Below are positions 16,937 through 64,000 of a stretch of 64,000 nucleotides of DNA, piece by piece. Origin of the DNA: an uncultured SAR86 cluster bacterium (GTDB lineage Bacteria > Pseudomonadota > Gammaproteobacteria > Magnimaribacterales > D2472); NCBI GenBank assembly GCA_902528215.1, contig CABZRR010000003.1:20954-84953 (forward strand), given 5' to 3'. Position numbers and translations under genes: made by a program. Each line of letters opens with the position of its first letter. Positions within the stretch are counted from its first letter, which is position 1. The notes beneath the pieces were generated by a model. The model was not told the origin of the DNA, searched no databases, and saw only the letters and a program-made list of their open reading frames with translations.

Positions 16937-18046
16937 ATGTCACAGAGAGACTATTACGAGGTCTTGGGTGTCTCTCGAAGTGCTTCAGATGCTGAATTAA
17001 AAAAAGCATTTAAGAAATTAGCTATGAAATATCATCCGGATAGAAATCCAGATGATCCATCTGCCAACGAAAAATTTAAAGAGGCCGCAGAGGCCTATGA
17101 AATACTTTCTGATTCAGAAAAAAAATCAGCATATGATCAATTTGGCCATGCCGGTGTCCAGGGTATGGGAGGTGGTCAAGGTGGAGGGTTTCAAGATTTT
17201 AATTTTGGAGATATATTTGGAGACATATTTGGAGATGTATTTGGAGGACGTACTTCTTCCAGAAGACAAGCAAGGGGCCAAGATCTTCAGTACAACATAG
17301 AGCTTTCCTTAAAGGAAGCAATCCTTGGGGTCAAAAAGACAATTAAGATACCTGTAGATAAAATATGTGTTGAATGTTCAGGATCTGGCGCTAAACCAGG
17401 TTCAGCTCCTGTTACCTGCAGTCAATGTAATGGTGCTGGCCAAGTTAGAATGCAACAAGGTTTCTTTTCAGTTCAACAGACATGTAATGTATGTGGAGGA
17501 GAAGGCAGCATTATTAAAGATCATTGTAATGTCTGTAGGGGAGCTGGGGTTATTCAAGAGACTAAATCACTATCCGTAAGTATCCCCCCCGGTGTAGATA
17601 ATGGAGATAAAGTTAGGCTTTCTGGAGAGGGCAGTGCTTCAAGAGGTGGCCGCACCGGAGATTTATATGTCGCTATTAGGATTGCTCAAAATGAAATCTT
17701 CGAAAGAGAAGGTAAAGATCTTTACTTTGAAGCCCCTATTCCTTTTGAAATTGCAGTTTTAGGAGGAACCATCAATGTTCCTGGATTGGAATCAAAAATT
17801 GCACTAAAAATACCAGCTTACACTCAAACAGGGAGAATTTTTAGAATTAAAGGTAAAGGTGCTGCTTCAGTTCGTGACTCAAGAAGAGGCGATCTTTTGT
17901 GCAGAGTAGTAGTTGAAACTCCAGTAAATCTTTCAAAGGCTCAAATTAAGATTTTCGAAGAATTTGCTAAATCAATTGCTGGTGATAAACATCATCCAAT
18001 AAAGCAATCTTTCAAAAACGCCTCGAATCAATTTCACAATAAATAG
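16937..18046 (+). CDS. dnaJ: molecular chaperone DnaJ (Hsp40)
   Basis: J domain DYYEVLGV...KYHPDRNP, a G/F region, and four CxxCxGxG zinc motifs. Confidence 0.97.
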
Positions 18047-18050
18047 AAAA

Positions 18051-18725
18051 TTGCATATATTAATAAATGGCTTCAATGGAAATATGGGTCGGGCAATTCA
18101 AGCTCAATGTAAAAAACTATCTAATACTTATATTAGTGATTTCCATATAAAAGATTTTGACTCAAATAACATATCTGCATTAATAGATTTTTCTGCCCCT
18201 GATGGTTTCACTGAAGCTTTAAGGTTTTGCAAAGAAAATAAGATTCCTTTTATATCAGGAACAACAGGATTAACTGCAAAACATTTAGAAGACGTAACAG
18301 CTGCAAAAAAATTTATTCCGATATTAATAGCATCAAATATGTCCCTTGGTATTGCAAATTTAAAAACTTCAATAGAGAAGTATCTAATTTCAATCAATAC
18401 ATCAGTTAAATGTAAAATTGTTGAAATTCATCATACAAAGAAAAAAGATTCTCCATCTGGAACGGCATTAGAAATTGTTAAATTTCTACAAAATTTTCAT
18501 GCAAACAAAATAGAAGGTTTGATTGACGTCAAGTCTTACAGAATTGGGAATATCTTTGGAATTCATAGAATTGAATTTAAAAGCGATGAGGGAATTACAA
18601 ATTTTCAGCATATTGCAAGCAGTAGAGACGTATTTGCAATAGGAGCTTTGCAGGCAGCAAGGTCAATTAATTCAATGGAAATCGGAGAATATAGCTTTGC
18701 TGACTTCATAAATAAAAAGCTTTAA
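18051..18725 (+). CDS. dapB: 4-hydroxy-tetrahydrodipicolinate reductase (short form, 224 aa)
   Basis: TTG start. Contains NGFNGNMGRAI (Rossmann motif) and the catalytic block EIHHTKKKDSPSGTA. It follows dnaJ as in Pseudomonas. Confidence 0.85.
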   Translation: MHILINGFNGNMGRAIQAQCKKLSNTYISDFHIKDFDSNNISALIDFSAPDGFTEALRFCKENKIPFISGTTGLTAKHLEDVTAAKKFIPILIASNMSLGIANLKTSIEKYLISINTSVKCKIVEIHHTKKKDSPSGTALEIVKFLQNFHANKIEGLIDVKSYRIGNIFGIHRIEFKSDEGITNFQHIASSRDVFAIGALQAARSINSMEIGEYSFADFINKKL

Positions 18726-50501: not shown

Positions 50502-51551
50502 ATGAAAAGCCTAAATCCTATCCCGGTAGCAGGCAATCCAGCATCGCCTTATACCAGAAAGATGCTTGCATTAATGAGGTATCGAAGAATTTGTTACACA
50601 GTTGAGTGGGGAGATCCTCGAAACTTAATCAAAAAGATGAAATTAGAAGAACCAAAGCCAATGCTATTGCCAGTAATTATATTTAATGTTGATGGTCAGA
50701 ATAAGGCTATTACAGATTCAACTCCAATTATTCGTCATCTAGAAAATGAATTTACTTTAAGGAGCGTAATTCCCTCTGATCCAAAATTAAATTTTTTAAA
50801 TTATGTTCTTGAAGATTTTGGTGATGAGTGGGTAACTAAATACATGTTCCATTATCGATGGCATTTTTCAAATGATATAGAGAAGGCGGGGACTATTTTG
50901 CCACTTATGCATGATGTAAGTCTAGACGATGCGAGCCACCTGGAATTTAAAAAATATTTTTCTGAATTGCAGACAAGTCGTTTAAGGGTTGTCGGTTCCA
51001 ATCAAAAAACCGCTCCTATAATTGAAGCAAGTTATAAAAGGTTTTTAAAAAAACTTGATTATTGTTTGTCACTTAATCCATATTTGTTTGGCAAACGTCC
51101 TTCATCATCAGATTATGCAATTTATGGACAGCTTACCCAATTAGTTGGTTTTGATCCTACATCTAGTAATATCGCGCATGCCGTGTCTCCTCGAGTTATT
51201 GCTTGGGTCGATCAAATGGAGGACATGAGTGGGATAGACGTTCATCAGGAAGATTGGATAAATTTTGAGGATGTTGAAAACAATTTGTCTGGTCTTTTTC
51301 AAGAAATAGGCAAAGTTTACATTCCTGCACTTCTGGCAAATTCTAATGCTATTGATGCAAAAGAAAAAATTTGGAAAACTAATATTGATGGCACTGAATG
51401 GGAGCAGCAAAGCTTTCCCTATCAAGCAAAATGCTTGAAATGGATTAACGATGAGTTTAGCGCTTTAAATGAAGATGACCAAAAACAAATAAAAAGTTTT
51501 TTAGAGAAGACTGGATGTGAGAATTTAATTGTAAGGAGCAAAAATGATTGA
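50502..51551 (+). CDS. glutathione S-transferase-like protein (extended, about 350 aa)
   Basis: Thioredoxin-like N-domain ([11 protein letters not shown]...[12 protein letters not shown]) and a GST-C-like helical domain ([18 protein letters not shown]). The subfamily is uncertain. Confidence 0.6.
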
Positions 51552-52227
51552 TTTTTATACAGCCCCAACCCCCAACGGTCATAAAGTTTCATGCACTCTG
51601 GAAGCCATGGGATTAGATTATGAAACCCATATTATTAATTTATCCAAGAATGAGCAAAAGGAGCCTGATTTCCTTGCAATTAGTCCTAATGGAAGAATTC
51701 CTGCAATTGTGGACAGGGATGCAAACAATTTAGCTATTTTTGAATCAGGAGCCATTATGATTTATCTTGCAGAAAAGACTGGGAAGCTCATGCCAAGTGA
51801 TCTAAATGAAAAAGCAAAAGTTCTAGAATGGTTGATGTTTCAGATGGGCGGAGTTGGACCTATGATGGGCCAAGCAAATGTCTTTTTTCGGTATTTTCCA
51901 GAAAAAATACAGCCAGCGATAGATCGATATCAAAATGAAGGCAGAAGATTATTCGAAGTGCTTGACAACCATTTAGCTAGACAGGAATGGCTTGCAACAG
52001 ACTACTCAATAGCAGATATTGCTAATTGGTGTTGGGTGAGAACACACAAATGGTCAGGAATTTCAGTTGATGGACTAGATCACCTTGAGCGATGGAGAAA
52101 AGCAATGTATAAGCAGCCTGGAATGCTTGAAGGTATTGCAGTTCCTGTAAAGATTGAAAAACTTCTAGATAACGATGAAAAAATGAAAGAGTTTACAAAG
52201 AATGCCGAAAAAATGGTGAAAAAATAA
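51544..52227 (+). CDS. yfcG: glutathione S-transferase, YfcG/Nu-class-like
   Basis: [20 protein letters not shown]...[14 protein letters not shown]...[15 protein letters not shown]...[15 protein letters not shown] is near-collinear with E. coli YfcG. Confidence 0.8.
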
Positions 52228-52241
52228 AAAAGGAGGAAGAA

Positions 52242-52856
52242 ATGTTAAAAGTACATTTTGTTGCTGGAACTAGATCGGGAAGAGTAGTTTGGCTTTTAGA
52301 GGAGTTAGGTTTGGAATATGAGGTAAATATTATGCCATTCACCAAAGAAGGCCTGAAATCACCTGAGCATAGATCAAGACATGCATTAGGAAGAGTTCCA
52401 GTATTAGAGGATGGCGATATTTCAATTTTTGAATCTGGCGCAATTATTGATTATGTTCTTGAGAGACATAAAAATGGAGGTTTGAAGCCTAATTCAGATG
52501 CTCCTGAATTTCCTTTTTATCTTCAGTGGTATCACTACTGTGAGGGTATGGTCATGCCTCCTATGAATCAAATTGTAGTTCAAACAGTTTTATTACCACC
52601 TGATAGAAGAGATGAAGTTGTATTAAATCAAGCGAAAAACCTACTAACAAAATCTTTAGCTCCAGTTAATGAAAATCTTGCAGATAAAGATTATTTAATT
52701 GGAGACTTTTCTGCTGCAGATTTGATGCTCGGACATTCGTGTTTTATGGCAAACAGACTTGGTTGCGTAAGTGATGAGATGCAAAATATCAAAGATTATG
52801 TTGCAAGGATTGCTGATAGACCTGCATTCAAAAAAGCTATCACCATGGGAGAGTGA
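52242..52856 (+). CDS. glutathione S-transferase family protein
   Basis: GRVPVLEDGDISIFESGAIIDYV (G-site) and a C-terminal helical domain with FSAADLML. Confidence 0.8.
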   Translation: MLKVHFVAGTRSGRVVWLLEELGLEYEVNIMPFTKEGLKSPEHRSRHALGRVPVLEDGDISIFESGAIIDYVLERHKNGGLKPNSDAPEFPFYLQWYHYCEGMVMPPMNQIVVQTVLLPPDRRDEVVLNQAKNLLTKSLAPVNENLADKDYLIGDFSAADLMLGHSCFMANRLGCVSDEMQNIKDYVARIADRPAFKKAITMGE

Positions 52857-53272
52857 CAATGAAAGTTAAAAATATGCTAACGCCTAATCAGGAGCAAATG
52901 GATGGATTCCTTGAGGGCGATAGTGACTCACCAATATCAATGGTAAATCTTCTAAAGTTTAAAGATAAAGCAGAGTATGCAGATGGTAGAGATTCAAAGC
53001 TTTCTGGCAGGGAGGCATATTTTATTTATGCAACTGAAGTAAAAGAACATTTAAAAAAAGTTGGAGCTGAGATAATCTTTGGTGGAGATGTAAGCCGATT
53101 AATGCTCGGTGAGGTTGAGGATTTATGGGACAGTGTTGCGATTGCTAGATACCCTAGTAGAAAAGCTATGCTAGAAATGATGATGGATAAAGATTATCAA
53201 GAAAGTGAAAAACGTAGATCTGCAGGGTTGCTTGGGCAATTAAATATAGAAACAAAAGAAGGTGTTATGTAG
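52853..53272 (+). CDS. DUF1330 domain protein
   Basis: 139 aa with VNLLKFKDKAEY...WDSVAIARYPSRKAMLEMM...Y, which fits the dimeric alpha/beta-barrel-like DUF1330 pattern (from memory). Confidence 0.6.
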   Translation: MTMKVKNMLTPNQEQMDGFLEGDSDSPISMVNLLKFKDKAEYADGRDSKLSGREAYFIYATEVKEHLKKVGAEIIFGGDVSRLMLGEVEDLWDSVAIARYPSRKAMLEMMMDKDYQESEKRRSAGLLGQLNIETKEGVM

Positions 53273-53739
53273 TGTTTAACAAAATCTTTCCCCTGGTGGC
53301 TGACAATAACTTTAATGGCAATAAGATCGCTCTTTGGGGATTCATTTTATTCACACTCTTGATGACATGGAGATCAATCATTCATATGCTTTTTGAGAAA
53401 TATGGATTTCATGAAATAGGAAATTTTATATCCATTGAAGGTAACGCTGACCCTATGGTGTTAATCTATAGATTTTTTTCCCTATGGGGTTTTGCGCAGT
53501 TAATAATTTGTCTTATTTGCTGGATTGTTATTTTTCGATACAGAGCACTCATTCCATTAATGTATTTACTATGGTTATTTGAATGGAGTTTTAGAGCATT
53601 TGGATATCCATTGATAAGGGAAGACATTACAATTCAAGGGATTTATACAGTTGGCGCTACTCCCGGTGAAGTCGGTGCTCCTTTTGCAGCTTTTCTTTTA
53701 ATGACACTTTTCAGTCTTTCACTGATACAAAAAAAATAA
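53272..53739 (+). CDS. hypothetical integral membrane protein
   Basis: GTG start overlapping the upstream stop. It has 3-4 hydrophobic helices, and I recognise no family. Confidence 0.5.
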   Translation: MFNKIFPLVADNNFNGNKIALWGFILFTLLMTWRSIIHMLFEKYGFHEIGNFISIEGNADPMVLIYRFFSLWGFAQLIICLICWIVIFRYRALIPLMYLLWLFEWSFRAFGYPLIREDITIQGIYTVGATPGEVGAPFAAFLLMTLFSLSLIQKK

Positions 53740-53754
53740 TATTGGGATAATACC

Positions 53755-54873
53755 GTGAATCAATTTCAAACTTTAAAATCTGACTTAACACAATCAAGAA
53801 TCATAGATATTGATTCAACTGTGATTGATGATGACGAGATTATTGTCAAGATTGAAAGTTATGCTTTTACAGCAAATAACGTTACTTATGGAGTAGCTGG
53901 CGATACCATTGGATATTGGAAATTTTTTCCAGCAGGGTATGACGAAAAAAATGAATGGGGCTGTATACCTGTGTGGGGATTTGCAGAAATTACTGATTCA
54001 AATGTCGAGGGTTTAAATATTGGAGAGCGACTGTTTGGTTATTTTCCAGCTGCAAACTCACTAACTTTAAAGCCAACTAAAATTTCAAATCAAAGTTTTA
54101 CTGATGGCAAAGAGCATCGAAAAGAATTACCGTCTGTTTATAATAATTACATCAGACTTGATGGAGATCAAAACTATGATGCATCGATGGATGCAATCAG
54201 AGCACTTTTATTCCCACTGCATATTACAGCATTTTGTTTATGCGACGCTTTAGCAGAAGATGCCTATTTTGGAGCATCTCAAATAATTATTATTAGCGCT
54301 TCAAGCAAAACAGCAATTGGTCTGGCTCAAGGCTTAGCCGATAAAGATAATTCGCCAAAAATTGTTGGCTTAACATCTGCCAGAAATACAAAATTTACAG
54401 AAAGTTTGGGCTGTTATGATCAGGTAGTTTCATACGATGAGCTTAAGAATATAGATTATTCTGCTGGCTCTATAATGGTTGATATGGCTGGCAACATAGA
54501 AATATTAGGAAAACTTCACGGAGAGCTTGGGGATAAAATGATAAAGTGCTTAACTGTTGGCATGACTCATTGGGACAATGGAACCACTGCAGATGATGCT
54601 TTAGGGCAAGTGATGCTAAGAGAAAGAACAGAATTCTTTTTCGCTCCAACGCACATTCAAAAGCGAATTGAAGACTGGGGACATGATGTTTATGCAAAAA
54701 AAACAAATTCCTTCATGGCTGCTAGAGCGCTGCAAAGTAAAATGTGGATGCAGATCAAGGAAATTGATGGGTTAGAAAACTTTACCAGTACTTACAAAGA
54801 AATGGTTGAAGGAAAAATCAATCCTAGCGAAGGAATAATCGTAAACTTAATTGACATAAGGAGAATTAGATGA
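53755..54873 (+). CDS. DUF2855 family protein (MDR-like fold, function unknown)
   Basis: 372 aa. The N-terminal block FTANNVTYGVAGDTIGYWKFFP...WGCIPVWGFAEI...GERLFGYFP matches my recollection of DUF2855. Confidence 0.5.
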   Translation: MNQFQTLKSDLTQSRIIDIDSTVIDDDEIIVKIESYAFTANNVTYGVAGDTIGYWKFFPAGYDEKNEWGCIPVWGFAEITDSNVEGLNIGERLFGYFPAANSLTLKPTKISNQSFTDGKEHRKELPSVYNNYIRLDGDQNYDASMDAIRALLFPLHITAFCLCDALAEDAYFGASQIIIISASSKTAIGLAQGLADKDNSPKIVGLTSARNTKFTESLGCYDQVVSYDELKNIDYSAGSIMVDMAGNIEILGKLHGELGDKMIKCLTVGMTHWDNGTTADDALGQVMLRERTEFFFAPTHIQKRIEDWGHDVYAKKTNSFMAARALQSKMWMQIKEIDGLENFTSTYKEMVEGKINPSEGIIVNLIDIRRIR

Positions 54874-55247
54874 AAAACGTGTTGAGAATAGTCGCGGGCC
54901 TTTTTGGATTCTTTTTTTTAATAAATGGAATCCAGTGGATTGTTAATCCAGCAAGTATTGCCGAGCAATTAGGCATGCCCTTGTTAGAGGGTGCTGGGCT
55001 GAGCACACAAATTGGTGATATAGGAAGTTTCTTTATCACAGTTGGGGTATTGACATTAGTTGGAGTGATTACAACAACACGTCACTGGTTTTATGCACCT
55101 TCAATGCTTTTATTGATAGCAGCTATATATAGAACCCTTTCAACTTTAATTTACGATGCACCATTCGTAATGTCAGCAATTGTTGTAGAGGTAGTTGTAG
55201 GTTTATTTTTAATCTTTGTTGGTTCGCGGATTTCAACACAAGATTAA
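54870..55247 (+). CDS. small 4-TM membrane protein (possibly DUF4345-like)
   Basis: 125 aa with four hydrophobic segments. An ATGA overlap links it to the upstream gene. Confidence 0.45.
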   Translation: MKNVLRIVAGLFGFFFLINGIQWIVNPASIAEQLGMPLLEGAGLSTQIGDIGSFFITVGVLTLVGVITTTRHWFYAPSMLLLIAAIYRTLSTLIYDAPFVMSAIVVEVVVGLFLIFVGSRISTQD

Positions 55248-55251
55248 AATT

Positions 55252-56304
55252 ATGAAACTCCTTAAATATATATCAATTTTTGCTTTAACTTGCTTTATCT
55301 TGGTGTCTGTTTTAACGAGAGTTCCAGCTGTCCAAGATCGTCTAATGCTAAGATTTGCTCAAACTTTGGGGAGCACAACGGCTGATTTAAATGATAATTC
55401 ATTATCCGCTGTTGTTTGTGGCTCTAGATCTCCACTTCCATCTCCAGGAAGGGCGCAAACATGTATTTTGGTGAATGCAGGAGGTAATTACTATGTTGTT
55501 GATATTGGAGATGGGAGTGCCGCAAATCTAGGTAATTGGAGAATAGATGCAAATAAGATTCGTGCTACTCTACTAACTCATCTTCACTCTGATCATATCT
55601 CTGATCTTGCAGATCTCCATTTAATGACATGGATTAATACCTCTCACACGAAGCCCATGGATGTTTATGGTCCTGAAGGTGTTGAAGTAGTAACTCAAGG
55701 TTTTGAGGATGCATATCAGTTGGACTATCAATACAGATATGAGCATCATGGTAATGAAATAGCGCCAAAAGATATTGCTGGTTTTAACACCTTTACGATA
55801 GATTTATCATACCCTGTAATTATTAATGAAGATGGTTTAAAAGTAACGGCCTTCAAGGTAACTCATGAGCCAGTTGATCCCGCTTTAGGATTTCGTTTTG
55901 ATTATAAGGGGAGATCAATTGTTATTAGTGGAGATACTATTTACGACGAAAATGTAATTAAACATGCAAAAGATGCGGATGTTTTATTTCATGAGGCGCA
56001 AGCAAATCATCAATTGGATATTATGAGAAAAGCTTTAGAAAGCAATAAAGGATTAGTTACAATTTTAAATGATATTGAGACGTATCATACAACACCTATA
56101 GAAGCTGCTAAGGTTGCAAACTTGGCTAACGTTGGCCATTTATTTTTTTATCATTTAACTCCAGCACCAAGAAATAATTTAACAGAAAGAATGTTTTTTC
56201 GAGGAGTCAATGATATAAGGAAAAAATGGAGTTCCACAAAAGATGGCACTATGGTTATTTTGCCATTAGACTCAGATGAAATAATAATTACAGATATAAA
56301 TTAA
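55252..56304 (+). CDS. MBL-fold metallo-hydrolase with an N-terminal signal/anchor
   Basis: HxHxDH motif LLTHLHSDHISDL, and downstream ISGDT and FHEA blocks. The start is taken at ATG 55252 (MKLLKYISIFALTCF...). Confidence 0.8.
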   Translation: MKLLKYISIFALTCFILVSVLTRVPAVQDRLMLRFAQTLGSTTADLNDNSLSAVVCGSRSPLPSPGRAQTCILVNAGGNYYVVDIGDGSAANLGNWRIDANKIRATLLTHLHSDHISDLADLHLMTWINTSHTKPMDVYGPEGVEVVTQGFEDAYQLDYQYRYEHHGNEIAPKDIAGFNTFTIDLSYPVIINEDGLKVTAFKVTHEPVDPALGFRFDYKGRSIVISGDTIYDENVIKHAKDADVLFHEAQANHQLDIMRKALESNKGLVTILNDIETYHTTPIEAAKVANLANVGHLFFYHLTPAPRNNLTERMFFRGVNDIRKKWSSTKDGTMVILPLDSDEIIITDIN

Positions 56305-57092
56305 TGGATGTAAAAAATAAAAGAGTTATTGTCACCGGTGCAGCAAGTGGCATTGGTAAGGCTCTATGCGAAGCTTTTCATCAAGCAGGAGCTAAATCAG
56401 TAATTGCTGTAGATATAAATCTCGATGGCGCACAAGAAACAGCTGATTCAGTCGACGGTATTGCTGTTCAAGCGAACGTTGGAAGTGAAAAGGATATTAT
56501 CAATCTGATTGAAAAGGCAAATGAGCATGTTGGCGGCATTGATATTTTTTGTTCTAATGCAGGAATTGGTGGGGTACCAGGATTTTTTGAAGTTGAGGCA
56601 TCGGATTGGCAGAATATTTGGGATGTGAATGTTCAATCTCATATCTTTGCAGCTAAACATGTTCTACCTCAGATGATTGAAAGAGGAGAAGGCTATCTAG
56701 TTAATACTTCATCAGCAGCCGGGCTTCTGACGCAGTTAGGAGCAGCAGGCTATTCAGTTACTAAAGCAGCTGCAGTTAGTTTTGCTGAGTGGGTCAAGAT
56801 AACCTATGGAGAAAAGGGTATTGGTGTTTCTTGTCTTTGTCCTCAGGCAGTTAGAACAGCAATGACTGCTCAAGGTCCTGGTGTTGCTGGTGTAGATGGA
56901 ATGATGGAGCCAGATGAAGTTGCTCAAGAAGTTTTAAAATGCATTGCAGAAGAAAAATTTTTAGTATTACCTCATATAGAAGTAGCTGAGTATGTTTCTA
57001 GAAAGGGTAATGATAGGGACAGATGGATATCTGGAATGCAGAGACTTCAAAAGCAATTTGAAGATTTCTTAACCCCAGTTGATATGAAGTAA
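56304..57092 (+). CDS. SDR family oxidoreductase
   Basis: VIVTGAASGIGKAL (TGxxxGxG), NAG, and the catalytic YSVTKAA (YxxxK). Confidence 0.88.
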   Translation: MDVKNKRVIVTGAASGIGKALCEAFHQAGAKSVIAVDINLDGAQETADSVDGIAVQANVGSEKDIINLIEKANEHVGGIDIFCSNAGIGGVPGFFEVEASDWQNIWDVNVQSHIFAAKHVLPQMIERGEGYLVNTSSAAGLLTQLGAAGYSVTKAAAVSFAEWVKITYGEKGIGVSCLCPQAVRTAMTAQGPGVAGVDGMMEPDEVAQEVLKCIAEEKFLVLPHIEVAEYVSRKGNDRDRWISGMQRLQKQFEDFLTPVDMK

Positions 57093-57107
57093 AAAAAAGG
57101 AGAAAAC

Positions 57108-58076
57108 ATGAAAACAAAAATTACAGAGTTATTTGGTATAGAGCATCCTATTATTCAGGGTGGAATGCATCATGTAGGATTTGCTGAGTTAGCCGCAGCA
57201 GTATCAAATGCAGGCGGTCTTGGAACTATAACGGGTCTAACTCAAGGAACGCCTGAAAAGCTTGCAAATGAGATAGCTCGATGTAAGGAGATGACCGACA
57301 AACCCTTTGCAGTGAATCTTACATTTTTACCTTCATTAACGCCTCCAGATTATCCTGGATTGGTCGATGTAATTATTGGTGGAGATGTTCCCATCGTTGA
57401 AACAGCTGGAAGAAATCCTGCTGAATATTTGCCTGCTTTAAAAGATGCAGGAATTAAAATTATTCATAAGTGCACCTCGGTAAGACATTCATTAAAAGCA
57501 CAATCAATAGGATGTGATGCCGTCTCGGTTGATGGTTTTGAATGCGGCGGTCATCCTGGTGAAGATGATATTCCTAATTTTATTCTTTTGCCTAGGGCAG
57601 CTGATGAACTTGAAATTCCATTTGTTGCCTCAGGGGGGATGGCTGATGCAAGAAGTTTAGTTGCAGCCATGGCTCTTGGAGCAGAAGGTATGAATATGGG
57701 CACGAGATTTATAGCAACTCAAGAAGCGCCAGTGCATCAAAATGTTAAAGATTCAATAGTTAATGCTTCTGAATTAGATACTAGATTAATTATGCGTTCT
57801 TTAAGAAACACCGAAAGGGTTCTTAATAATGAAGCAGTAGAGCGTCTTATGGAAAAGGAAAATGCCTTAGGGGATCAACTTACTTTCCAAGATATAGCTG
57901 ATGAGGTTGCTGGAGTTTATCCAAAGATTATGCATGAAGGGACTATGGAGGCTGGTGCTTGGTCTTGTGGAATGGTTGCGGGTCTGGTAAATGATATACC
58001 AACAGTTAAAGAGTTAATCGACGGAATTATGAATGAAGCTGATAGTATTATTGAAAAGAGATTAAGCAATTTTTAA
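57108..58076 (+). CDS. nitronate monooxygenase family (NMO copy 2)
   Basis: HPIIQGGMHHVG..LAAAVSNAGGLG...ASGGMADA...GAEGMNMGTRF. It is a paralog of 49576..50499. Confidence 0.85.
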   Translation: MKTKITELFGIEHPIIQGGMHHVGFAELAAAVSNAGGLGTITGLTQGTPEKLANEIARCKEMTDKPFAVNLTFLPSLTPPDYPGLVDVIIGGDVPIVETAGRNPAEYLPALKDAGIKIIHKCTSVRHSLKAQSIGCDAVSVDGFECGGHPGEDDIPNFILLPRAADELEIPFVASGGMADARSLVAAMALGAEGMNMGTRFIATQEAPVHQNVKDSIVNASELDTRLIMRSLRNTERVLNNEAVERLMEKENALGDQLTFQDIADEVAGVYPKIMHEGTMEAGAWSCGMVAGLVNDIPTVKELIDGIMNEADSIIEKRLSNF

Positions 58077-58092
58077 TTCTTAAATTCTGATC

Positions 58093-59046
58093 TTATATTA
58101 ATATCCCATTTACTCTGTCGATCAACCAGAAAAAGCCCATGCCACCTAAAATTAACGAGGTAAAAGTGGCTGATTGTTTATAAAAGTTAAATTTGTGCGA
58201 AAGCCAGATAACTGATCCAAATATAGGGATCAGCAGAAGCTGACCTGCTTCAATGCCCAGGTTAAAGAATAGTAAAGAAAGTAGCAGCTGCTCATTGTCG
58301 ATACCAATTCCAGTTAGGGCATTAGCAAAACCCAGCCCGTGCAACAACCCAAAGCCAAAAGCAACAAGCCAAGGTGTAGATTGATATTTTTTACTTTCAC
58401 TGACCTCTAAACCAAGGTAAATGATAGTAAGCGCAATAATTGCCTCTACAGTTGCTTGCGGTATTGAGACTAGCTCAAATACTGATAAACCTAAGGTAAT
58501 GCTATGTGCAAGAGTAAATGCAGTGATTGTTTTTACTGCATTGAAAAAACCTGAAATTAAAAAAAGTAGCCCTAAGATGAAAAGGATATGATCATTTCCA
58601 CTCATAAGATGATCAATGCCTAGAGTTAAATATCCCATTGGATAAACTTGCTTTTGAAAAGGAATCTCTATCGATGATCTTTTAAGGTTCATAAGGCCTT
58701 CAAATACCTCTCCGTTAGCATGGGTAATTGTTACTAAGGCATCTGTGAGCACACTCAAATTATTTACTGAAATTATTTGGCCTTTTAGAGAGCTTTCACA
58801 ATTGAGGGATATTCTTTCAACCAAATACTTTCCCTTTTGACTGGGAAGTTGGCTATTTCTTTCACAATCATCAGGGAAAAAAACTTCTGCTCTTGCACCA
58901 ATGTTTTTTATTGGATACATCCAACTCACTTGATACTCATTATCATTAAGCTCATCCACAACCAAGTGAGCCGGATTAAACTCATGAGAGAATAATGCAG
59001 TTGAACAAACAAGAATGACTAATGTTTTAACAAGCTTGTAAACCAT
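58093..59046 (-). CDS. HupE/UreJ-like membrane protein with a periplasmic N-domain (copy 2)
   Basis: Signal peptide with predicted cleavage ALFS/HEFNPAHL, a Cys-containing soluble domain of about 140 aa, then GIDHLMSGNDHILFILGLLFL and LLHGLGFANAL. Its ATG overlaps the upstream stop (TGATG). Confidence 0.7.
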   Translation of the reverse strand: MVYKLVKTLVILVCSTALFSHEFNPAHLVVDELNDNEYQVSWMYPIKNIGARAEVFFPDDCERNSQLPSQKGKYLVERISLNCESSLKGQIISVNNLSVLTDALVTITHANGEVFEGLMNLKRSSIEIPFQKQVYPMGYLTLGIDHLMSGNDHILFILGLLFLISGFFNAVKTITAFTLAHSITLGLSVFELVSIPQATVEAIIALTIIYLGLEVSESKKYQSTPWLVAFGFGLLHGLGFANALTGIGIDNEQLLLSLLFFNLGIEAGQLLLIPIFGSVIWLSHKFNFYKQSATFTSLILGGMGFFWLIDRVNGILI

Positions 59047-59846
59047 CAAAACTTATAATCTGGATCGATGACGACCCTATATTGAGATCTTATTTCATTA
59101 ATATATTTAGCAATAGCCTTATCTTGAGCCTCTGAAAGATAGTCTTGCTGAACTTTTATTAGAACCTTTTCAAGAGGGGGCGAAAATCCAGCTTTAACTT
59201 CTTTCAACATTATTATGTGATATCCATAGGTAGATTCATGCGGCCCAGACCACTCATTTACAGGAAGGTTTTTAATCGAAGAGAAAAATAATTCTCCAAA
59301 ATTTTTTTTAATTTCATTTGCAGTATTTTGATAAAAGTTTTTTCCTAAAAAAAATGGATCGCCCTTTAATTCATCTTCATTGGTTTGATAATCGTTAAAA
59401 GCTTTGGTTGCTCTTTCCTTTGCACTAGATTCTTTTGAATAGTAGTGATGAGAGAACGAATAGGTTGCAGGAACAAAGTAGTTACCTTTATTTTGTTGAA
59501 AAAATCCTTTTAATTCCTCTTGTGATGGATCTTCTGGAACAGTTTCTTGTTTTAAGAAAGTAATTTTTTGCGCTAATCTTCTTTTAATAATTCGATCTTC
59601 CTCATCTAAATTTAAAAGCAATGCTTCTCTGTATAAAATCTCCTCTTGAACAAAGTTATTTATAATATTTACAATTTCTTCATCATTTGGAGGTCTTCCA
59701 ACTTGTGACTGCCATGCTGAAAGCAAACTAGTTAATTCTTGGTCTGATATATAAATAACTTTTGAGTTTTTTTCAGAACTAAACGCAACATCAAGTATGA
59801 AAATTAATAAGCCAATTAAAAAAAATACAATTATCCTGAGTCTCAC
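59046..59846 (-). CDS. membrane-anchored parvulin-like (PpiC-type) peptidyl-prolyl isomerase / SurA-N-like chaperone
   Basis: N-terminal TM helix (IIVFFLIGLLIFILDVAF), helical region EEILYREALLLNLDEEDRIIKRRLAQKI, and parvulin blocks YSFSHHYY and STYGYHIIMLKE. Confidence 0.7.
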   Translation of the reverse strand: MRLRIIVFFLIGLLIFILDVAFSSEKNSKVIYISDQELTSLLSAWQSQVGRPPNDEEIVNIINNFVQEEILYREALLLNLDEEDRIIKRRLAQKITFLKQETVPEDPSQEELKGFFQQNKGNYFVPATYSFSHHYYSKESSAKERATKAFNDYQTNEDELKGDPFFLGKNFYQNTANEIKKNFGELFFSSIKNLPVNEWSGPHESTYGYHIIMLKEVKAGFSPPLEKVLIKVQQDYLSEAQDKAIAKYINEIRSQYRVVIDPDYKF

Positions 59847-59861
59847 TGCAAATCCTTAACT

Positions 59862-61958
59862 TTATAACGGGATTATCTCTAAATCGCTCGAGTCAGGTAT
59901 ATACCAAATTGGGGAGGACCACGCCCGCTCTTGAATTGTTTCATGCAGATCGGGCCTTGGTTTTACTCCAGCTTTCAATGCATCCCAAGTAGACCACCTG
60001 CAAGTCGGATTTTCTAGAACTCGAACATAGTAAAAAGCCTTTACGGCTGGATCAAAGTCTGGATCTGCCCAAGTAGTTTTGAGCTCTCCTGCTCCAACAT
60101 CATTGGAAATAGAGCAATCATTAATATTTACTCTTGCTCCATTATCAGGACAGCGATTAGTTATAGGATCTGCTACTAGGCCATCCGAACATGCAACATC
60201 GTAAATCTTTTCTTTTGGAGTACCAGAGGCAGTTTCAACCCACCCCTTGATAATTTGAACCCTTTGGAGAGGTGCTCCTAATTTATCCCGTTGAGCCCAT
60301 ACTAAAAATTGAGGAGTCTGATTAGCTTGACTGAATAAATCAGCGCCCATGGTAACCCCTTTTGCATATGCATTTTTAATCATATCTTCAGAATTCAAAT
60401 CAATTGATTCCATATCAAAGCCAGCAAAGAACCTTACTGCTATTCTAGTTCCTGTTGTTGCAAATGTTTCTTTTCTTTTAAATGCTTGAAAAATAGAATC
60501 TCGAGTATTTTCTTCAGCCCAAGCTACTGCCAATCCTGATGCACCCCATTGATCAAAGCCGACATCAGCATAAGTTTTGCCTTCAATTTCTTTTGTGCTC
60601 AGTGGCTGATTGAAGTCTAATGAATATTGTGTGAGTTGATCAATTCTATCCTGTGATAGAGGTACGCTTCCTCTTCCCATATCTGTACCATCAAGAACAC
60701 CAACTTTAGACCAATAATTATTTTCATCGAATGCACCTGCTCCAGTATGCGTATCACTTGAACCTATTAAGCCAAATTTATATGGGTTACCACGGCCTTC
60801 CCACTCTAAAGTTAAACCTCTTAGAAAAGCATCTCTAACATAGCCACCTTGGGGCATGCTATAAGTTGGTGGCCTGCTACCGACTCTTTTATCCATGATT
60901 TCAAAATCAGCCCATTCATCATCCGGAGAGAGTAAGGGATGAGTGTCGGATGTTCCTTTGACCTGAGTCATTTCAACAACAGGCTCATTTCTCATTCTCT
61001 TTTCTGAATATTCTTTACTCATAGGATTTCCTCTATATGTCTCTACCTCAAACATTTGACCATTTGAGCCATTGCTATTGTGAGGCATAGCCAAAGAATC
61101 AACACCTTTGTCTCTTAAGCTGTCCATCCATGTCCAAAGATCTTCTGGGTTAAGAGAATCAATTCTTGTCCAAGGCCTAATTGGAGCATTGGAAGAATTA
61201 AAAATAACATTTCGATGCAAATTACCGCCTTCTACCTCTGTTGAGGTCGTATACTCATAACCAATGAAGGTTGTGAAATTTCCTGGATCATTGAATTCTT
61301 CTGCGGCTTTCGCTACATCTGCCCATGCAGACTTGTGAACATCATAATCAAATGAGGTTAAAGCAAGTTGAATATTATTTGTTAGCCATGCTCCTAAATA
61401 GTTTGGATGCCACCAAGGGTAAGGTTTATTAATAATTTCTCTACTTAATACAGAGCTAAATAAATCAGCTCGCTCTCCAGTTGATTCAACGGTTACATTC
61501 TCAGGCCTATTTATATTATGAATAGGTTTTGTCCACTCATTTTTAGACATCTTTGACGAAGTATCAGCATAATTTTCAATCATACCCATATAAAAACCAT
61601 GATCAGTCACCGCATAAAAATCCAATGGCTCTTTCAATTTCATATCAAAGCCTAAGGGATGTTTAATTGCTTCACCAGTAGCAAACCTATATGCATCATA
61701 TGGAGTTGCAGTTACTCCAAAAATATATGCATCAAATGAATACTTAGTATGAACATGCAAATCACCATAGTACGGATTTCTGTATGGATTAGATGGAATA
61801 TCAGTATCGACTGAAGAATTTTCGATTGAGAAATCTACTATCTCTAAAGCCGATTCTCTCTGGAATATACTAAAGGAGTTAGTTGCATATAGATAAAATA
61901 TAAAGGAGACAATAATTAATCCAATAGAAGATTTGCTAAGTTTCATTTTTCCCACCAT
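59862..61958 (-). CDS. DUF3604 family protein (exported, PHP-like His-rich motifs), copy 1
   Basis: 698 aa with an N-terminal hydrophobic segment, plus YYGDLHVHTKYSFDAY, FYAVTDHG and the C-terminal ERAWSSPIWY. The alternative start ATG 61946 (MKLSK) is preceded by GGTGGG. Confidence 0.7.
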   Translation of the reverse strand: MVGKMKLSKSSIGLIIVSFIFYLYATNSFSIFQRESALEIVDFSIENSSVDTDIPSNPYRNPYYGDLHVHTKYSFDAYIFGVTATPYDAYRFATGEAIKHPLGFDMKLKEPLDFYAVTDHGFYMGMIENYADTSSKMSKNEWTKPIHNINRPENVTVESTGERADLFSSVLSREIINKPYPWWHPNYLGAWLTNNIQLALTSFDYDVHKSAWADVAKAAEEFNDPGNFTTFIGYEYTTSTEVEGGNLHRNVIFNSSNAPIRPWTRIDSLNPEDLWTWMDSLRDKGVDSLAMPHNSNGSNGQMFEVETYRGNPMSKEYSEKRMRNEPVVEMTQVKGTSDTHPLLSPDDEWADFEIMDKRVGSRPPTYSMPQGGYVRDAFLRGLTLEWEGRGNPYKFGLIGSSDTHTGAGAFDENNYWSKVGVLDGTDMGRGSVPLSQDRIDQLTQYSLDFNQPLSTKEIEGKTYADVGFDQWGASGLAVAWAEENTRDSIFQAFKRKETFATTGTRIAVRFFAGFDMESIDLNSEDMIKNAYAKGVTMGADLFSQANQTPQFLVWAQRDKLGAPLQRVQIIKGWVETASGTPKEKIYDVACSDGLVADPITNRCPDNGARVNINDCSISNDVGAGELKTTWADPDFDPAVKAFYYVRVLENPTCRWSTWDALKAGVKPRPDLHETIQERAWSSPIWYIPDSSDLEIIPL

Positions 61959-62054
61959 TTATATCTATGAAGCCCAATTATTATGTCAATTGTAGGACTA
62001 AAAATGCAAGAATGCTTATACTAGGTTTTAAAAAATTTAGAGAAAAATCTTAAA

Positions 62055-63398
62055 ATGATTAAATATTTCAGAAATTTTATGGCAAGGCGAACGTTAGGTG
62101 CAAACTTACGAAATAAAATAATGAATACATTTTCCAGTTATGAAATTTTTAAAGATACTAGAGCAAAAGCAGAAGCTTCGAGACAAAATGATCAAAGGTC
62201 TCATGAAGTTTTATATTTTCATAAAGTTGATGATCCTTATTCGCATCTAACGATTCAATCGATTAATAAGCTTCAAGCATCGTTTGATATTGAGTTGAAG
62301 CCAGTATTGGTAGGTGAAGAAAGTTTGGAGGCACTGCATGAACCGACTTTATACAATTATTACTGTCTTCAAGATGTCCAACGAATTGCACCATTTTATG
62401 ACATTGAATTTCCAGCAAAATCCTATCCAGCTAGAGAACTCGTCATCATAGCTAACTCAATTCTGTCCGCAGTTGACGAACAAAATTTTGTGGATATAGC
62501 TACCCAAGTAAGTTTTGCTCTGTGGAGTGGAGATTCTGAAAAACTTGATGCTATTTCTTCCACCTACTTTGCGACATCAGGCCAAATTAAGGAAAAGTTA
62601 AACAATGGCAACGAAATTAGAAATGGAAAAGGTTATTATTTTGGTTCAGCTTTTTATTATGAAAAAGAACTATATTGGGGCTTAGATCGACTACCATATT
62701 TAGAAGAAAGACTGACTGAGCTTGGTGCAAGAAAAAAATCTGAAAACAATGAAATCTACCCTCTGAAACTAAAAGCTCCCAAAACATTAATTTCTGAAAA
62801 AAAAGTTAATCTTTATTACTATCCCTCATTAAATAGCCCTTATACCTTTGTTAGTACAAAAAGAATAAGAGAGATTCGAGATGAGTATCCTATTAATTTA
62901 CATATGAAACCAGTTTTACCTATGCTTATGAGGATGATGAATATACCAACTAACAAAGCAAAATATATTCTCTCAGATGCTGCAAGAGAAGGAAGAAAAT
63001 ATGCACATGAAATGAAAACTATTTATTCTCCAATTGGAAAACCAGCAAGAAAGTCATATTCACTGTTTCCAGCAATTGATAAGGATGGAAAAGGCTTTGA
63101 ATATATTGAAGCTTTGCTTAAAGCTTCCTTTCAAGATGGAATAAACATTGGCGATGATAATTTTTTAGAACAACTGGTTATAGATTTAGGTCTTGATTGG
63201 ACAATGATAAGCAAAGATCTAAATTCAAAACACTGGAAAAAAATACTCAATGATAACGTTGAAGATATGTACTCAGGAAATTGCTGGGGTGTTCCAAGTT
63301 TTAAAATTACCAATGAGGATGGCACTGATCCATTTTATGTCTGGGGTCAGGATAGAATTTGGTTATTAAAAGAGGAGATCGCTAGGCGTTTGTCATAA
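62055..63398 (+). CDS. tandem DsbA-like / 2-hydroxychromene-2-carboxylate isomerase (kappa-GST-like) domain protein
   Basis: Two repeats, each with beta1 plus (D/S)PY(S/T) in place of CxxC (FHKVDDPYSH; YPSLNSPYTF). Each ends in a (Y/V)WG(L/Q)DR(L/I) block (LYWGLDRLPYLE; YVWGQDRIWLLKE). The second also has CWGVPSF. There is no signal peptide, and the exact start is uncertain. Confidence 0.65.
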   Translation: MIKYFRNFMARRTLGANLRNKIMNTFSSYEIFKDTRAKAEASRQNDQRSHEVLYFHKVDDPYSHLTIQSINKLQASFDIELKPVLVGEESLEALHEPTLYNYYCLQDVQRIAPFYDIEFPAKSYPARELVIIANSILSAVDEQNFVDIATQVSFALWSGDSEKLDAISSTYFATSGQIKEKLNNGNEIRNGKGYYFGSAFYYEKELYWGLDRLPYLEERLTELGARKKSENNEIYPLKLKAPKTLISEKKVNLYYYPSLNSPYTFVSTKRIREIRDEYPINLHMKPVLPMLMRMMNIPTNKAKYILSDAAREGRKYAHEMKTIYSPIGKPARKSYSLFPAIDKDGKGFEYIEALLKASFQDGINIGDDNFLEQLVIDLGLDWTMISKDLNSKHWKKILNDNVEDMYSGNCWGVPSFKITNEDGTDPFYVWGQDRIWLLKEEIARRLS

Positions 63399-63405
63399 GA
63401 CTATT

Positions 63406-64000
63406 ATGAAAATCAAAGAAATTTATTTTATTTTGTCTTTTTTTCTAGTAGCAGCATGTTCTGATTCAAGTAACTCAAAAAATATAATTAAACCTATAGA
63501 AGTTAAGCCCATAGTGGAAAAACTCAATATTGTTAGGCCTTTACCTAATCCAAATAAAAATGCTTATTTTGGTGATCTACATGTTCACACTGGAAATTCA
63601 TTTGACGCTTACACTTTTGGAACAATCAATACTCCAAAAGATGCTTACAAATATGCTCGAGGCCATGCAATAGTCCATCCAAGTGGGTATTTGATTCAAC
63701 TAAGCAGACCTTTAGATTTTTATGCTGTAACTGATCATGGAATTTTTATGGGATTAATGAAAGTTGCAGCAGATACGACATCTGAGTTCTCAAAATATGA
63801 ATTTACCAAGCCTTTACATAATCTGAATGAATCCGTGGATACCGGTATTATTTCCTTGATTAAAAGAGGAAATATTTTCAGACCCTTTTATAGAAAAGTT
63901 ACCGAGGGACTAGAGGATGGATCAATTGATGGCTCGCTAATAGAAAAAGTCGAAAGATCAGTATGGCAACAAACCATTGAAGCTGCAGACAATGCTTATA
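63406..64000 (+). CDS. DUF3604 family lipoprotein, copy 2 (5' part; continues past the window end)
   Basis: This ORF is not in the supplied track because it has no stop in the window. I translated it by hand from ATG 63406: MKIKEIYFILSFFLVAACSDS (lipobox LVAAC) ...AYFGDLHVHTGNSFDAY...LDFYAVTDHGIFMG... It stays open to base 64000. In a hand count, 41 of 63 aligned residues are identical to copy 1. Confidence 0.8.
   Translation, partial: MKIKEIYFILSFFLVAACSDSSNSKNIIKPIEVKPIVEKLNIVRPLPNPNKNAYFGDLHVHTGNSFDAYTFGTINTPKDAYKYARGHAIVHPSGYLIQLSRPLDFYAVTDHGIFMGLMKVAADTTSEFSKYEFTKPLHNLNESVDTGIISLIKRGNIFRPFYRKVTEGLEDGSIDGSLIEKVERSVWQQTIEAADNAY

Follow-up and report, generated by a model that had tools for sequence, protein, structure and literature searches.

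The window analyzed here, a stretch of 64,000 nucleotides from an uncultured SAR86 cluster bacterium (contig CABZRR010000003.1, positions 20,954 to 84,953), carries on its minus strand three closely packed genes, which are labeled D (DUF3604), P (parvulin-like) and H (HupE-like). An initial annotation, made from the sequence alone, had reported three packed open reading frames (ORFs) at this place, and the ORF list and the junction sequence reproduce both its coordinates and its junctions:

61958..59862, minus strand: D, the DUF3604 gene, 698 amino acids (aa) as the annotated ORF
59846..59046, minus strand: P, a membrane-anchored parvulin-like gene, 266 aa, GTG start
59046..58093, minus strand: H, an anglerase-like HupE/UreJ-2 gene, 317 aa from ATG

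The D and P genes are separated by a 15-nt gap, with the sequence AGTTAAGGATTTGCA between the D stop codon and the GTG of P and an AAGGA Shine-Dalgarno sequence inside it. At the junction of P and H in the window, the A of the TGA stop codon of P is the A of the H ATG (1-nt overlap); in the ORF list, the H ORF is longer by one in-frame TTG codon (59049, 318 aa). Because numerous near-identical database proteins have 694 aa, the true start of D is more likely to be the second ATG at 61946 (694 aa). The closest database matches (86–97% identity) come from marine metagenomes and from metagenome-assembled genomes (MAGs) named SAR86. The trio and its entire neighborhood are syntenic in SAR86 relatives and the GC content of the trio region is continuous with its flanks, by which a horizontal-transfer island was ruled out. 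All sequence motifs that had been quoted are present in the translations, those of D (YYGDLHVHTKYSFDAY, FYAVTDHG and ERAWSSPIWY) as well as those of H (LFS/HEFNPAH, GIDHLMSGNDH and LLHGLGFANAL). The proposed assignments to the DUF3604, parvulin and HupE-like families were recovered with Pfam (PF12228, PF13145 and both PF13795 and PF04955), with every match above its cut-off.

Conservation of the trio as a unit was assessed in a species-level scan, with one genome per species and a diverse DUF3604 profile. The scan gave 80 DUF3604 loci from Gammaproteobacteria, Alphaproteobacteria, Acidobacteriota, Binatia and other groups, which were searched with hidden Markov models (HMMs) built from the window proteins. 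Both P and H were found at 32 of the 80 loci, and at 25 of the 59 loci whose flanks reach at least 2.5 kb on each side. With one exception, P and H either co-occurred or were both missing. In 25 of the 32 trio loci, the genes share one strand and follow the order D>P>H or D>D>P>H, and the junction between P and H was typically a 4-nt overlap (range 1–4 nt). The probability of finding the pair by chance at 25 or more of 59 loci is ∼4e-41 if there is one HupE_UreJ_2 gene per 3000 genes, and ∼9e-20 if there are five per 2000 genes.

In the reciprocal scan, a profile of H was searched against metagenomes, which yielded 80 loci from soil, sediment, freshwater and marine samples. P lies directly upstream of H in 56 of the 58 metagenome loci with sufficient upstream sequence, and D is present in 26 of the 32 H loci with at least 1.4 kb upstream. 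Among the 11 H loci with full flanks, 10 contain D and all contain P. The sole full-flank locus that lacks D (L134, 5133–7975) has the P-H pair beside DUF3450/ExbB/TPR genes of a TonB system and a gene for a HAD hydrolase, with no DUF3604 gene within 7 kb of the pair. In a plasmid/chromid collection, D was found in 80 records and H at full length in 70, and the two sets agree in their genus counts. In all 40 complete rhizobial or marine replicons that were retrieved with both genes, D and H share a strand and lie no more than 2.9 kb apart, with a median gap of 931 nt, the size of P. The names given by PGAP in R. leguminosarum, Pseudoalteromonas and S. meliloti are 'DUF3604 domain-containing protein', 'peptidylprolyl isomerase' and 'HupE/UreJ family protein'. 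The co-localization of the three families beyond this genome, for which the initial annotation had proposed co-occurrence statistics as a check, is massive as well as reciprocal. Chance adjacency of the trio was ruled out by the null-model probabilities, the reciprocal scan and the linkage in complete replicons.

The genes that flank the trio differ among R. leguminosarum, S. meliloti, Pseudoalteromonas and SAR86, and since they differ between lineages the trio is a self-contained module, both ancient and mobile; the operon is also present in S. fredii, Ruegeria and Hyphomonas. In a neighbor-joining tree of DUF3604, linkage to P-H is scattered over many clades, and the idea of a special D subfamily in need of helpers was dropped for this reason. 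There are also tandem D>D>P>H arrangements, and both a linked (L060) and an unlinked (L069) copy of D are present in one Hyphomonas genome. Together with the scattered linkage, these arrangements fit a single P-H pair that serves several D paralogs. One contig (L020, DMOB01000329.1, labeled Acidimicrobiaceae UBA9040) calls for a caveat. It contains a TonB-dependent receptor gene directly upstream of P>H>D>D, and in the tree the D genes of a Halieaceae MAG (L025) have its two D genes as their nearest relatives. Because a TonB-dependent receptor is implausible in an actinobacterium, the contig is probably mis-binned, and it was not counted as evidence for the trio in Actinomycetota.

D matches PF12228 (DUF3604) over profile positions 2–591 of 591 (E 3.4e-225, 749.4 bits against a cut-off of 20.4), and NCBIfam contained no model that matched D or H. 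The family is composed of 8,723 clusters at 50% identity (E<1e-3). The D protein comprises an N-terminal transmembrane (TM) anchor (residues ∼9–36), a PHP-like barrel with large insertions and a C-terminal β-sandwich with four conserved cysteines. The AlphaFold2 (AF2) model, which was built on an alignment of 96 diverse homologs, has a predicted local distance difference test score (pLDDT) of 88.9 and a predicted template modeling score of 0.90, with a low-confidence helical insert at about residues 140–200. When this model was submitted to Foldseek, the sole significant match in the PDB was 3E38 (E 4.8e-5, probability 1.0), a Bacteroides 'two-domain protein containing predicted PHP-like metal-dependent phosphoesterase' (PDB entry). 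The C-terminal β-sandwich gave weak matches to Ig-like, Unc119 and RhoGDI folds (E 0.02–0.1 for Unc119 and RhoGDI).

Nine residues, H68, H70, D76, H120, E235, H248, H293, D402 and H404, are invariant in the 96 homologs and are putative metal ligands; numerous arginines are also invariant across this set, and the four C-terminal cysteines are conserved. In an hhalign alignment of the DUF3604 profile with E. coli YcdX (the sequence used is identical to PDB 1M65), H68, H70, D76 and H120 fall on the YcdX ligands H7, H9, H15 and H40, so that an aspartate stands where YcdX has the ligand His15. The remaining five counterparts were placed by motif order and inspection only (GYE/GIE, LH/FH, PHNSN/SHPGN and SSDTHT/GSDSHT). 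As judged from this conservation and from the model, D appears to be a highly divergent protein of the PHP fold, in which all nine metal-ligand positions of YcdX have invariant counterparts. The PHP-type metal site that the initial annotation had suspected is in keeping with a confident model and nine invariant counterparts, four of them aligned by hhalign and five assigned by motif order.

Among 83 DUF3604 N-termini, 43 contain a lipobox and 35 a signal peptide or anchor, which leaves 5 without a detectable signal. In 9 of the 83, the hydrophobic core is preceded by an RR dipeptide, and the full Tat consensus was found in none of the 83. The D protein of the window has an uncleaved-looking N-terminal TM helix (model helix 9–36). 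Since export of D is mainly of the lipoprotein/Sec type, most D proteins probably cross the membrane unfolded and acquire their metals outside the cytoplasm. This qualifies the earlier description of HupE/UreJ proteins as permeases that feed metalloenzymes, as import of metal into the cytoplasm alone would not feed an enzyme that is mostly exported by Sec/Lol.

H matches PF13795 (HupE_UreJ_2; E 2e-42, 145 bits against 24.5) and also, above the cut-off, PF04955 (HupE_UreJ; E 1.7e-7, 31.3 bits against 23). Its predicted signal-peptidase site, Ala20–His21, is at least 90% conserved in two independent alignments of 33 and 75 sequences. The predicted mature N-terminus begins with His21 in the motif H-E-x-(R)-P, and Cys61 and Cys83 are conserved. 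The signature of HupE/UreJ proteins consists of six TM helices, the first of which bears HPxxGxDH (PMC7689651). The corresponding motif in TM helix 1 of H is H146-L-M-S-G150-N-D152-H153, in which G150, D152 and H153 are invariant, H146 is at least 90% conserved (75 sequences) and the proline of HPxxGxDH is replaced by leucine or isoleucine. Other conserved residues of the membrane core are H181, E201, E214, H236, N262, E266 and Q269. In the AF2 model of H (pLDDT 88.2), a β-sandwich (residues 26–127) is followed by six long helices after residue 136. The structure nearest to the periplasmic domain in Foldseek was Zn-bound ZrgA of Vibrio cholerae (8F1B; E 9.4e-4, probability 1.0), and Cu-bound Ang-1 (9GCE) was at rank 2 (E 0.08, probability 0.84, template modeling score (TM-score) 0.32). 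Searches of H against PDB sequences with phmmer and hmmsearch gave no match, 9GCE included. Ang-1, as well as Ang-2, belongs to the anglerases, which were defined in a 2025 Nat Commun paper as N-terminal-His capture domains fused to PF13795 permeases (PMC12537917). From its sequence and model, H appears to have the anglerase architecture with a different, shorter capture domain, and we treat it as alike in architecture but not as an established member of Ang-1; the structural comparison covers Ang-1, as there is no Ang-2 structure. On a plasmid of Pseudoalteromonas sp. JSTW (L168, 4936–6571, minus strand), a second, short HupE/UreJ gene of the classical kind (231 aa) is divergent from the trio, with a hypothetical gene and a DUF6488 gene behind it; this locus thus contains two HupE-type genes.

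In P, a single N-terminal TM helix and a helical region precede a Rotamase_2 domain (PF13145; residues 107–228, profile positions 1–119 of 121, E 1.5e-12, 48.8 bits against 27). The NCBIfam match, to the peptidylprolyl isomerase model PRK00059 (E 4.5e-9), is below the cut-off of that model. The 'SurA-N-like helices' of the initial annotation found no HMM support, as there was no Pfam match to SurA_N at E≤0.01, and what was seen instead was a weak similarity to the SurA-like chaperones PEB4 (E 0.034) and Cj1289 (E 0.15) in the PDB. In 34 homologs of P, the parvulin histidine motifs F131-x-H133 and G207-x-H209 are at least 70% and at least 90% conserved, respectively; we take their histidines to correspond to the catalytic histidines of Par10 and Pin1. 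By its sequence, P spans the membrane once and has its Rotamase_2 domain in the periplasm, and this sequence is compatible both with a prolyl isomerase and with a protein that acts only as a chaperone.

We tentatively read the trio, on the basis of gene linkage and topology, as an operon for an extracytoplasmic PHP-type multinuclear metallohydrolase and a dedicated chaperone/metal-loading pair, and we place this reading a little on the doubtful side of even. D would be exported unfolded across the inner membrane, at the outer face of which P would hold or fold apo-D. The N-terminal His domain of H would capture the correct divalent metal, either from the periplasm or from the cytoplasm via the facilitator core, and H would load the multinuclear site of D, with one P-H pair able to serve several D paralogs. 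Holo-D would then hydrolyze an anionic ester; because all characterized PHP enzymes act on phosphoesters, a phosphoester is the most likely substrate and, by this analogy, the probable one. In many lineages, the substrate would enter through an adjacent TonB-dependent receptor.

In favor of this arrangement are the linkage of the three genes, the near-obligate pairing of P and H, the conserved ligands and export signals of D and the conserved N-terminal histidine of H. There is a precedent in the PHP enzyme YcdX, which needs the operon-encoded chaperone YcdY for metal insertion and whose operon includes the membrane-protein gene ycdZ (PMC4464133). For H, the precedent is that anglerase domains bind Cu or Ni through His1 (PMC12537917). 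The initial annotation had proposed that a dedicated foldase and a metal-handling protein service the hydrolase. Linkage and topology are consistent with that proposal, and from them we infer the servicing itself, that is, the physical cooperation of P and H with D. The direction of metal flow, the metal, the phosphoester chemistry and the link to TonB uptake are likewise part of the proposal.

Several observations weigh against the assignment of these roles. The case is one of gene linkage and topology, in which the cooperation of all three proteins is deduced from sequences and models. At 33 of the 59 DUF3604 loci there is no P-H pair within 8 kb; D can presumably work without a neighboring pair. 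The match of D to the Pfam PHP family (PF02811) is below threshold and is confined to the HxH motif (E 0.057, 14.2 bits against 26.4). Searches against PDB sequences gave no useful match, either with D as a single sequence or with the DUF3604 family profile. The TM-scores of D against 3E38 are modest (0.25 for the query and 0.46 for the target), with a high root-mean-square deviation that arises from large insertions. Rotamase_2 domains are often devoid of peptidyl-prolyl isomerase activity, as in PpiD. In the HupE/UreJ family, which is known for cytoplasmic importers (PMC7689651), hand-off of metal to a periplasmic enzyme is without precedent, and anglerases have been proposed to feed uptake (PMC12537917). 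A role in phosphate scavenging has no regulatory support either: a search upstream of the Rhizobium operon gave 0 matches to a Pho box with ≤3 mismatches.

A bolder form of the proposal, which we regard as rather unlikely, is that P and H constitute a dedicated periplasmic metallation station, an unrecognized piece of envelope machinery in which H acts as a metal donor through its His 'fishing' domain. H would possibly conduct metal outward from the cytoplasm, and H and P together would load Sec-exported D with a metal that is otherwise outcompeted by Zn or Cu in the periplasm. If this were true, DUF3604 would be a major class of extracytoplasmic phosphoesterases in SAR86, rhizobia and Acidobacteriota.

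The other genes near D bear on how the operon should be read. Besides P and H, the recurrent neighbors at the 80 loci are short-chain dehydrogenases/reductases (SDRs; 13 loci), TonB-dependent receptors (11), sulfatases (6) and, at 7 loci each, acyl-CoA dehydrogenases, Baeyer-Villiger monooxygenases and enoyl-CoA hydratases; glutathione S-transferases (GSTs) are also among them. The TonB-dependent receptor is the only neighbor that tracks the trio (9 of 32 trio loci against 2 of the other 48, Fisher p 0.005, uncorrected for phylogeny). It is immediately adjacent to the trio in L020, L052, L066, L057 and L070, and L025 has the order TBDR>D>D (TBDR, TonB-dependent receptor) without P-H. Genes for PAP2, glycerophosphodiester phosphodiesterase (GDPD) and HAD phosphatases lie near some trio modules. 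In two variant contexts, H is followed by a gene for a membrane-bound glycerophosphodiester phosphodiesterase (L130, 156–3233) and for a TonB-dependent receptor (L113, 430–3473). On plasmid p_2 of R. leguminosarum RCAM1365 (L167, 4843–6659), a divergent PAP2-family phosphatase gene is directly upstream of the trio, as is a gene for a 262-aa signal-peptide protein that ends in ...IRF and has an outer-membrane β-barrel-like look. A single CTGTCAT half-site is located ∼70 nt before the D start on this plasmid, with no full Pho box, and no Pho box was found by eye in the SAR86 intergenic region.

These neighbors suggest a scheme in which the roles are reversed. The TonB receptor would import an organic, possibly phosphorylated metal-chelate, D would cleave the chelator in the periplasm, H would capture and import the released metal, and P would merely fold D or H. 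The enrichment of receptors at trio loci and their adjacency to the trio at the five loci above are as this scheme predicts, and it would also accommodate the locus in which P-H is found beside an ExbB/ExbD/TonB-type cluster (L134) and the one in which H is followed by a receptor gene (L113). Anglerases and HupE/UreJ proteins have, moreover, been described as uptake devices, and published Ang-1 neighborhoods include the Ni-binding DUF4198, in whose own neighborhoods TonB receptors are found (PMC12537917). However, the TBDR>D>D arrangement without P-H in L025 connects the receptor with D and not with the capture of metal, and the enrichment, uncorrected for phylogeny, includes several Hyphomonas and Parasphingorhabdus loci. 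The DUF3604 loci without P-H nearby (33 of 59) and a multi-paralog family of 8,723 clusters are more typical of catabolic enzymes than of one uptake step, and the scheme offers no obvious place for a dedicated membrane foldase. We judge reversed roles to be unlikely. We are still more doubtful that P-H is an ordinary trace-metal import unit, co-expressed since D consumes metal in the manner of hupE/ureJ in hydrogenase and urease clusters, with the metal reaching D indirectly through the cytoplasm (in Tat-exported forms) or through a larger envelope pool. A permease gene inside the gene cluster of its client is the classical HupE/UreJ logic (PMC7689651), and the RR dipeptide in 9 of the 83 D proteins could mark Tat export after metallation in the cytoplasm. 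Nevertheless, 78 of the 83 have a lipobox or a Sec-type signal and none the full Tat consensus, so cytoplasmic metal cannot reach most of them, and the near-obligate, translationally coupled parvulin gene at H (56 of 58 loci) would be left unexplained.

The remaining alternative keeps the module as proposed and changes its chemistry. D would not be a phosphoesterase, the PHP-like site having been recruited for another hydrolysis, for instance that of sulfate, carboxyl or amide esters of lipids or xenobiotics. D is too diverged for HMMs to connect it with PHP, D76 replaces a His ligand and the β-sandwich weakly matches the lipid-binding Unc119/RhoGDI folds (E 0.02–0.1). Instead of pho genes, the neighbors are SDRs, Baeyer-Villiger monooxygenases, acyl-CoA dehydrogenases, enoyl-CoA hydratases, sulfatases and GSTs, and no Pho box was found upstream of the Rhizobium operon. 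On the other hand, D retains counterparts of all nine ligand positions and numerous invariant arginines, and genes for PAP2, GDPD and HAD phosphatases lie beside some modules. To our knowledge, every characterized PHP enzyme is a phosphoesterase (histidinol phosphatase, YcdX, CpsB, the PHP domains of PolX and DnaE, TrpH and Cv1693). A non-phosphoesterase D seems to us about as improbable as metal supply without hand-off, and the metallohydrolase with a dedicated chaperone/metal-loading pair is the reading that we favor.

The trio is transcribed divergently from a second operon, which comprises a DsbA-like gene and a second DUF3604 gene:

61959..62054, 96 nt: intergenic stretch that separates the trio from the divergent DsbA-like/second-DUF3604 operon; presumed to be a promoter region
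62055-63398, plus strand: DsbA-like protein, 447 aa (PF01323, E 7e-15, residues 256–442)
63406..64000, plus strand: D2, second DUF3604 paralog, N-terminal 198 codons (the window end cuts the gene)

When the intergenic region was read by eye, a candidate promoter for the trio was seen, with TTGACA at 61989..61984 (minus strand) and an A/T-rich TAGATAT 16–17 nt further on. A consensus promoter scan of 61959..62054 found no significant promoter and only chance-level promoter-like sites, and a promoter and terminator scan of the trio operon likewise remained at chance level. The 447-aa DsbA-like protein has no obvious signal peptide. D2, which the initial annotation had missed, starts 7 nt after the DsbA-like gene at 63406 on the plus strand and has a lipoprotein signal (LVAAC; lipobox N-terminus MKIKEIYFILSFFLVAAC). 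It shares the HxH and TDHG motifs with D and is 50% identical to it over the common part (E 1e-40); the full-length ortholog at the equivalent position in the SAR86 relatives L001–L006 has 656 aa. D2 is a possible second client of P and H. The pair of DsbA-like and DUF3604 genes is kept in the SAR86 relatives L001–L006 and L039, and DsbA-like genes are also found near DUF3604 in L027 and L035. The DsbA-like gene may represent a second, different partnership for DUF3604.

The region upstream (51544–58076, plus strand) is a dense run of detoxification/catabolism-type genes that is syntenic with SAR86 relatives. It contains, in this order, two GSTs, DUF1330-like small proteins, a DUF2855-like protein, a metallo-β-lactamase (MBL)-fold protein, an SDR and an NMO/FabK-like oxidoreductase. 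The Pfam labels of these genes were borrowed from the SAR86 relatives, except for NMO, which has its own Pfam match. In L001, L002 and L006, a 548-aa sulfatase gene (about 17077–18723) is present between the DUF2855 gene and a small ORF. It has no counterpart in L003–L005 nor, as judged from the ORF layout, in the window at about 54870–55250, which amounts to a strain-level presence/absence polymorphism beside the module. The SDR, epimerase and MBL-fold genes are split into two ORFs in the ENA contigs L002, L004 and L006 (e.g. L002, 3853–5670) and intact in otherwise near-identical contigs; the split ORFs are most likely frameshift errors of long-read assembly and not pseudogenes.

The initial annotation knew of no experimental description of such a system. 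As far as the trio is concerned this stands, since neither the three-gene module nor an anglerase-type protein tied to a specific client enzyme was found described in the searchable literature, which also contained no mention of PF12228, PF13795, HupE_UreJ_2 or IPR022028. The architecture of H, by contrast, was characterized in 2025 as that of anglerases, in a study of other subfamilies that drew no connection to DUF3604 or to a parvulin (PMC12537917). The parts of the trio are thus of known kinds (PHP hydrolases, parvulin chaperones and HupE/UreJ-2 anglerase permeases), and an accessory chaperone or a permease in a metalloenzyme cluster is a familiar idea; it is the conserved trio itself that is new to the searchable literature. 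Chlamydia trachomatis, an obligate intracellular bacterium, also has a DUF3604 protein. This 622-aa protein (CT_425/CTL0684) appears with no function given as a row of a transposon table, the one mention of DUF3604 in the searchable literature, and a transposon insertion in its gene was tolerated (PMC11925237).

DUF3604 is a very large family without an assigned function, and it is present in SAR86, which is among the most abundant marine heterotrophs, in rhizobial chromids and in soil Acidobacteriota. The trio provides it with a probable fold and chemistry (those of a PHP-type metal hydrolase), an envelope location and two genetic partners. The occurrence of the same operon in R. leguminosarum, S. 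meliloti, S. fredii, Pseudoalteromonas, Ruegeria and Hyphomonas makes DUF3604 experimentally tractable. For the newly described anglerase/HupE-UreJ-2 proteins, the physiological role of which has so far only been proposed, D is a candidate client, and the trio bears on a question of metallobiology, namely how Sec-exported enzymes are supplied with the correct metal outside the cytoplasm. Should the substrate be an organophosphate, DUF3604 would be relevant to phosphorus cycling in the ocean and in soil.

Among known systems, D most resembles PHP enzymes such as YcdX (1M65) and BVU_3505 (3E38), with which it shares the order of the ligand motifs (HxH, (H/D), H, E, H, H, DxH). The local motifs are near-identical in D and a PHP enzyme (DLHVHT/DLHMHT, AVTDHG/AITDHG and SSDTHT/GSDSHT, respectively), and 3E38 has, as D appears to have, a PHP barrel with a C-terminal β-sandwich. 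D differs in being two to three times larger, with long insertions, in having Asp in place of His15 of YcdX and in being a Cys-rich protein exported as a lipoprotein or with an anchor, whereas the characterized PHP enzymes are cytoplasmic. The closest parallel to the operon as a whole is ycdX-ycdY(-ycdZ) of E. coli, in which a PHP Zn enzyme, a dedicated Zn-insertion chaperone and an inner-membrane protein are likewise encoded together (PMC4464133). However, the YcdX system is cytoplasmic, YcdY is a cytoplasmic chaperone of the TorD/DmsD family and not a parvulin, and YcdZ belongs to DUF1097 and not to HupE/UreJ.

P can be compared with Lif, PrsA, PpiD and PEB4, which are N-terminally anchored, periplasm-facing chaperones encoded beside an exported client. 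In PrsA, PpiD and PEB4, as in P, the parvulin domain is located within a helical chaperone region, whereas Lif contains no parvulin domain, and PrsA and PpiD are general rather than client-specific. We know of no case in which Lif, PrsA, PpiD or PEB4 is coupled to a metal-transport protein. H shares with classical HupE/UreJ proteins the six TM helices, the HPxxGxDH-type motif in TM helix 1 (HLMSGNDH) and the position of its gene inside the cluster of a metalloenzyme client. Classical clients are cytoplasmic, or are exported by Tat after metallation in the cytoplasm, whereas D is mostly exported by Sec/Lol. H also differs in its additional periplasmic domain of ∼105 residues and in that PF13795, and not PF04955, is its primary match.

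With anglerases, H shares a signal peptide that is cleaved to leave His1 (in H, by prediction), a periplasmic β-sandwich and a C-terminal PF13795 core. Anglerase domains bind Cu and Ni with Kd values of 74 and 220 nM, respectively, and have been proposed to fish for metal and to feed the permease (PMC12537917). Published anglerase neighborhoods include DUF4198, indigoidine-A-like proteins, PfkB kinases and metallophosphatases, and in the portion of the neighborhood tables available to us Rotamase_2 occurs three times and DUF3604 does not occur (PMC12537917). Compared with Ang-1, H has no sequence match and only a moderate fold match, and its domain is shorter (∼105 versus ∼165 residues) and closer to ZrgA. 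What sets the H subfamily apart from the anglerases is its near-obligate pairing with a parvulin and a DUF3604 protein.

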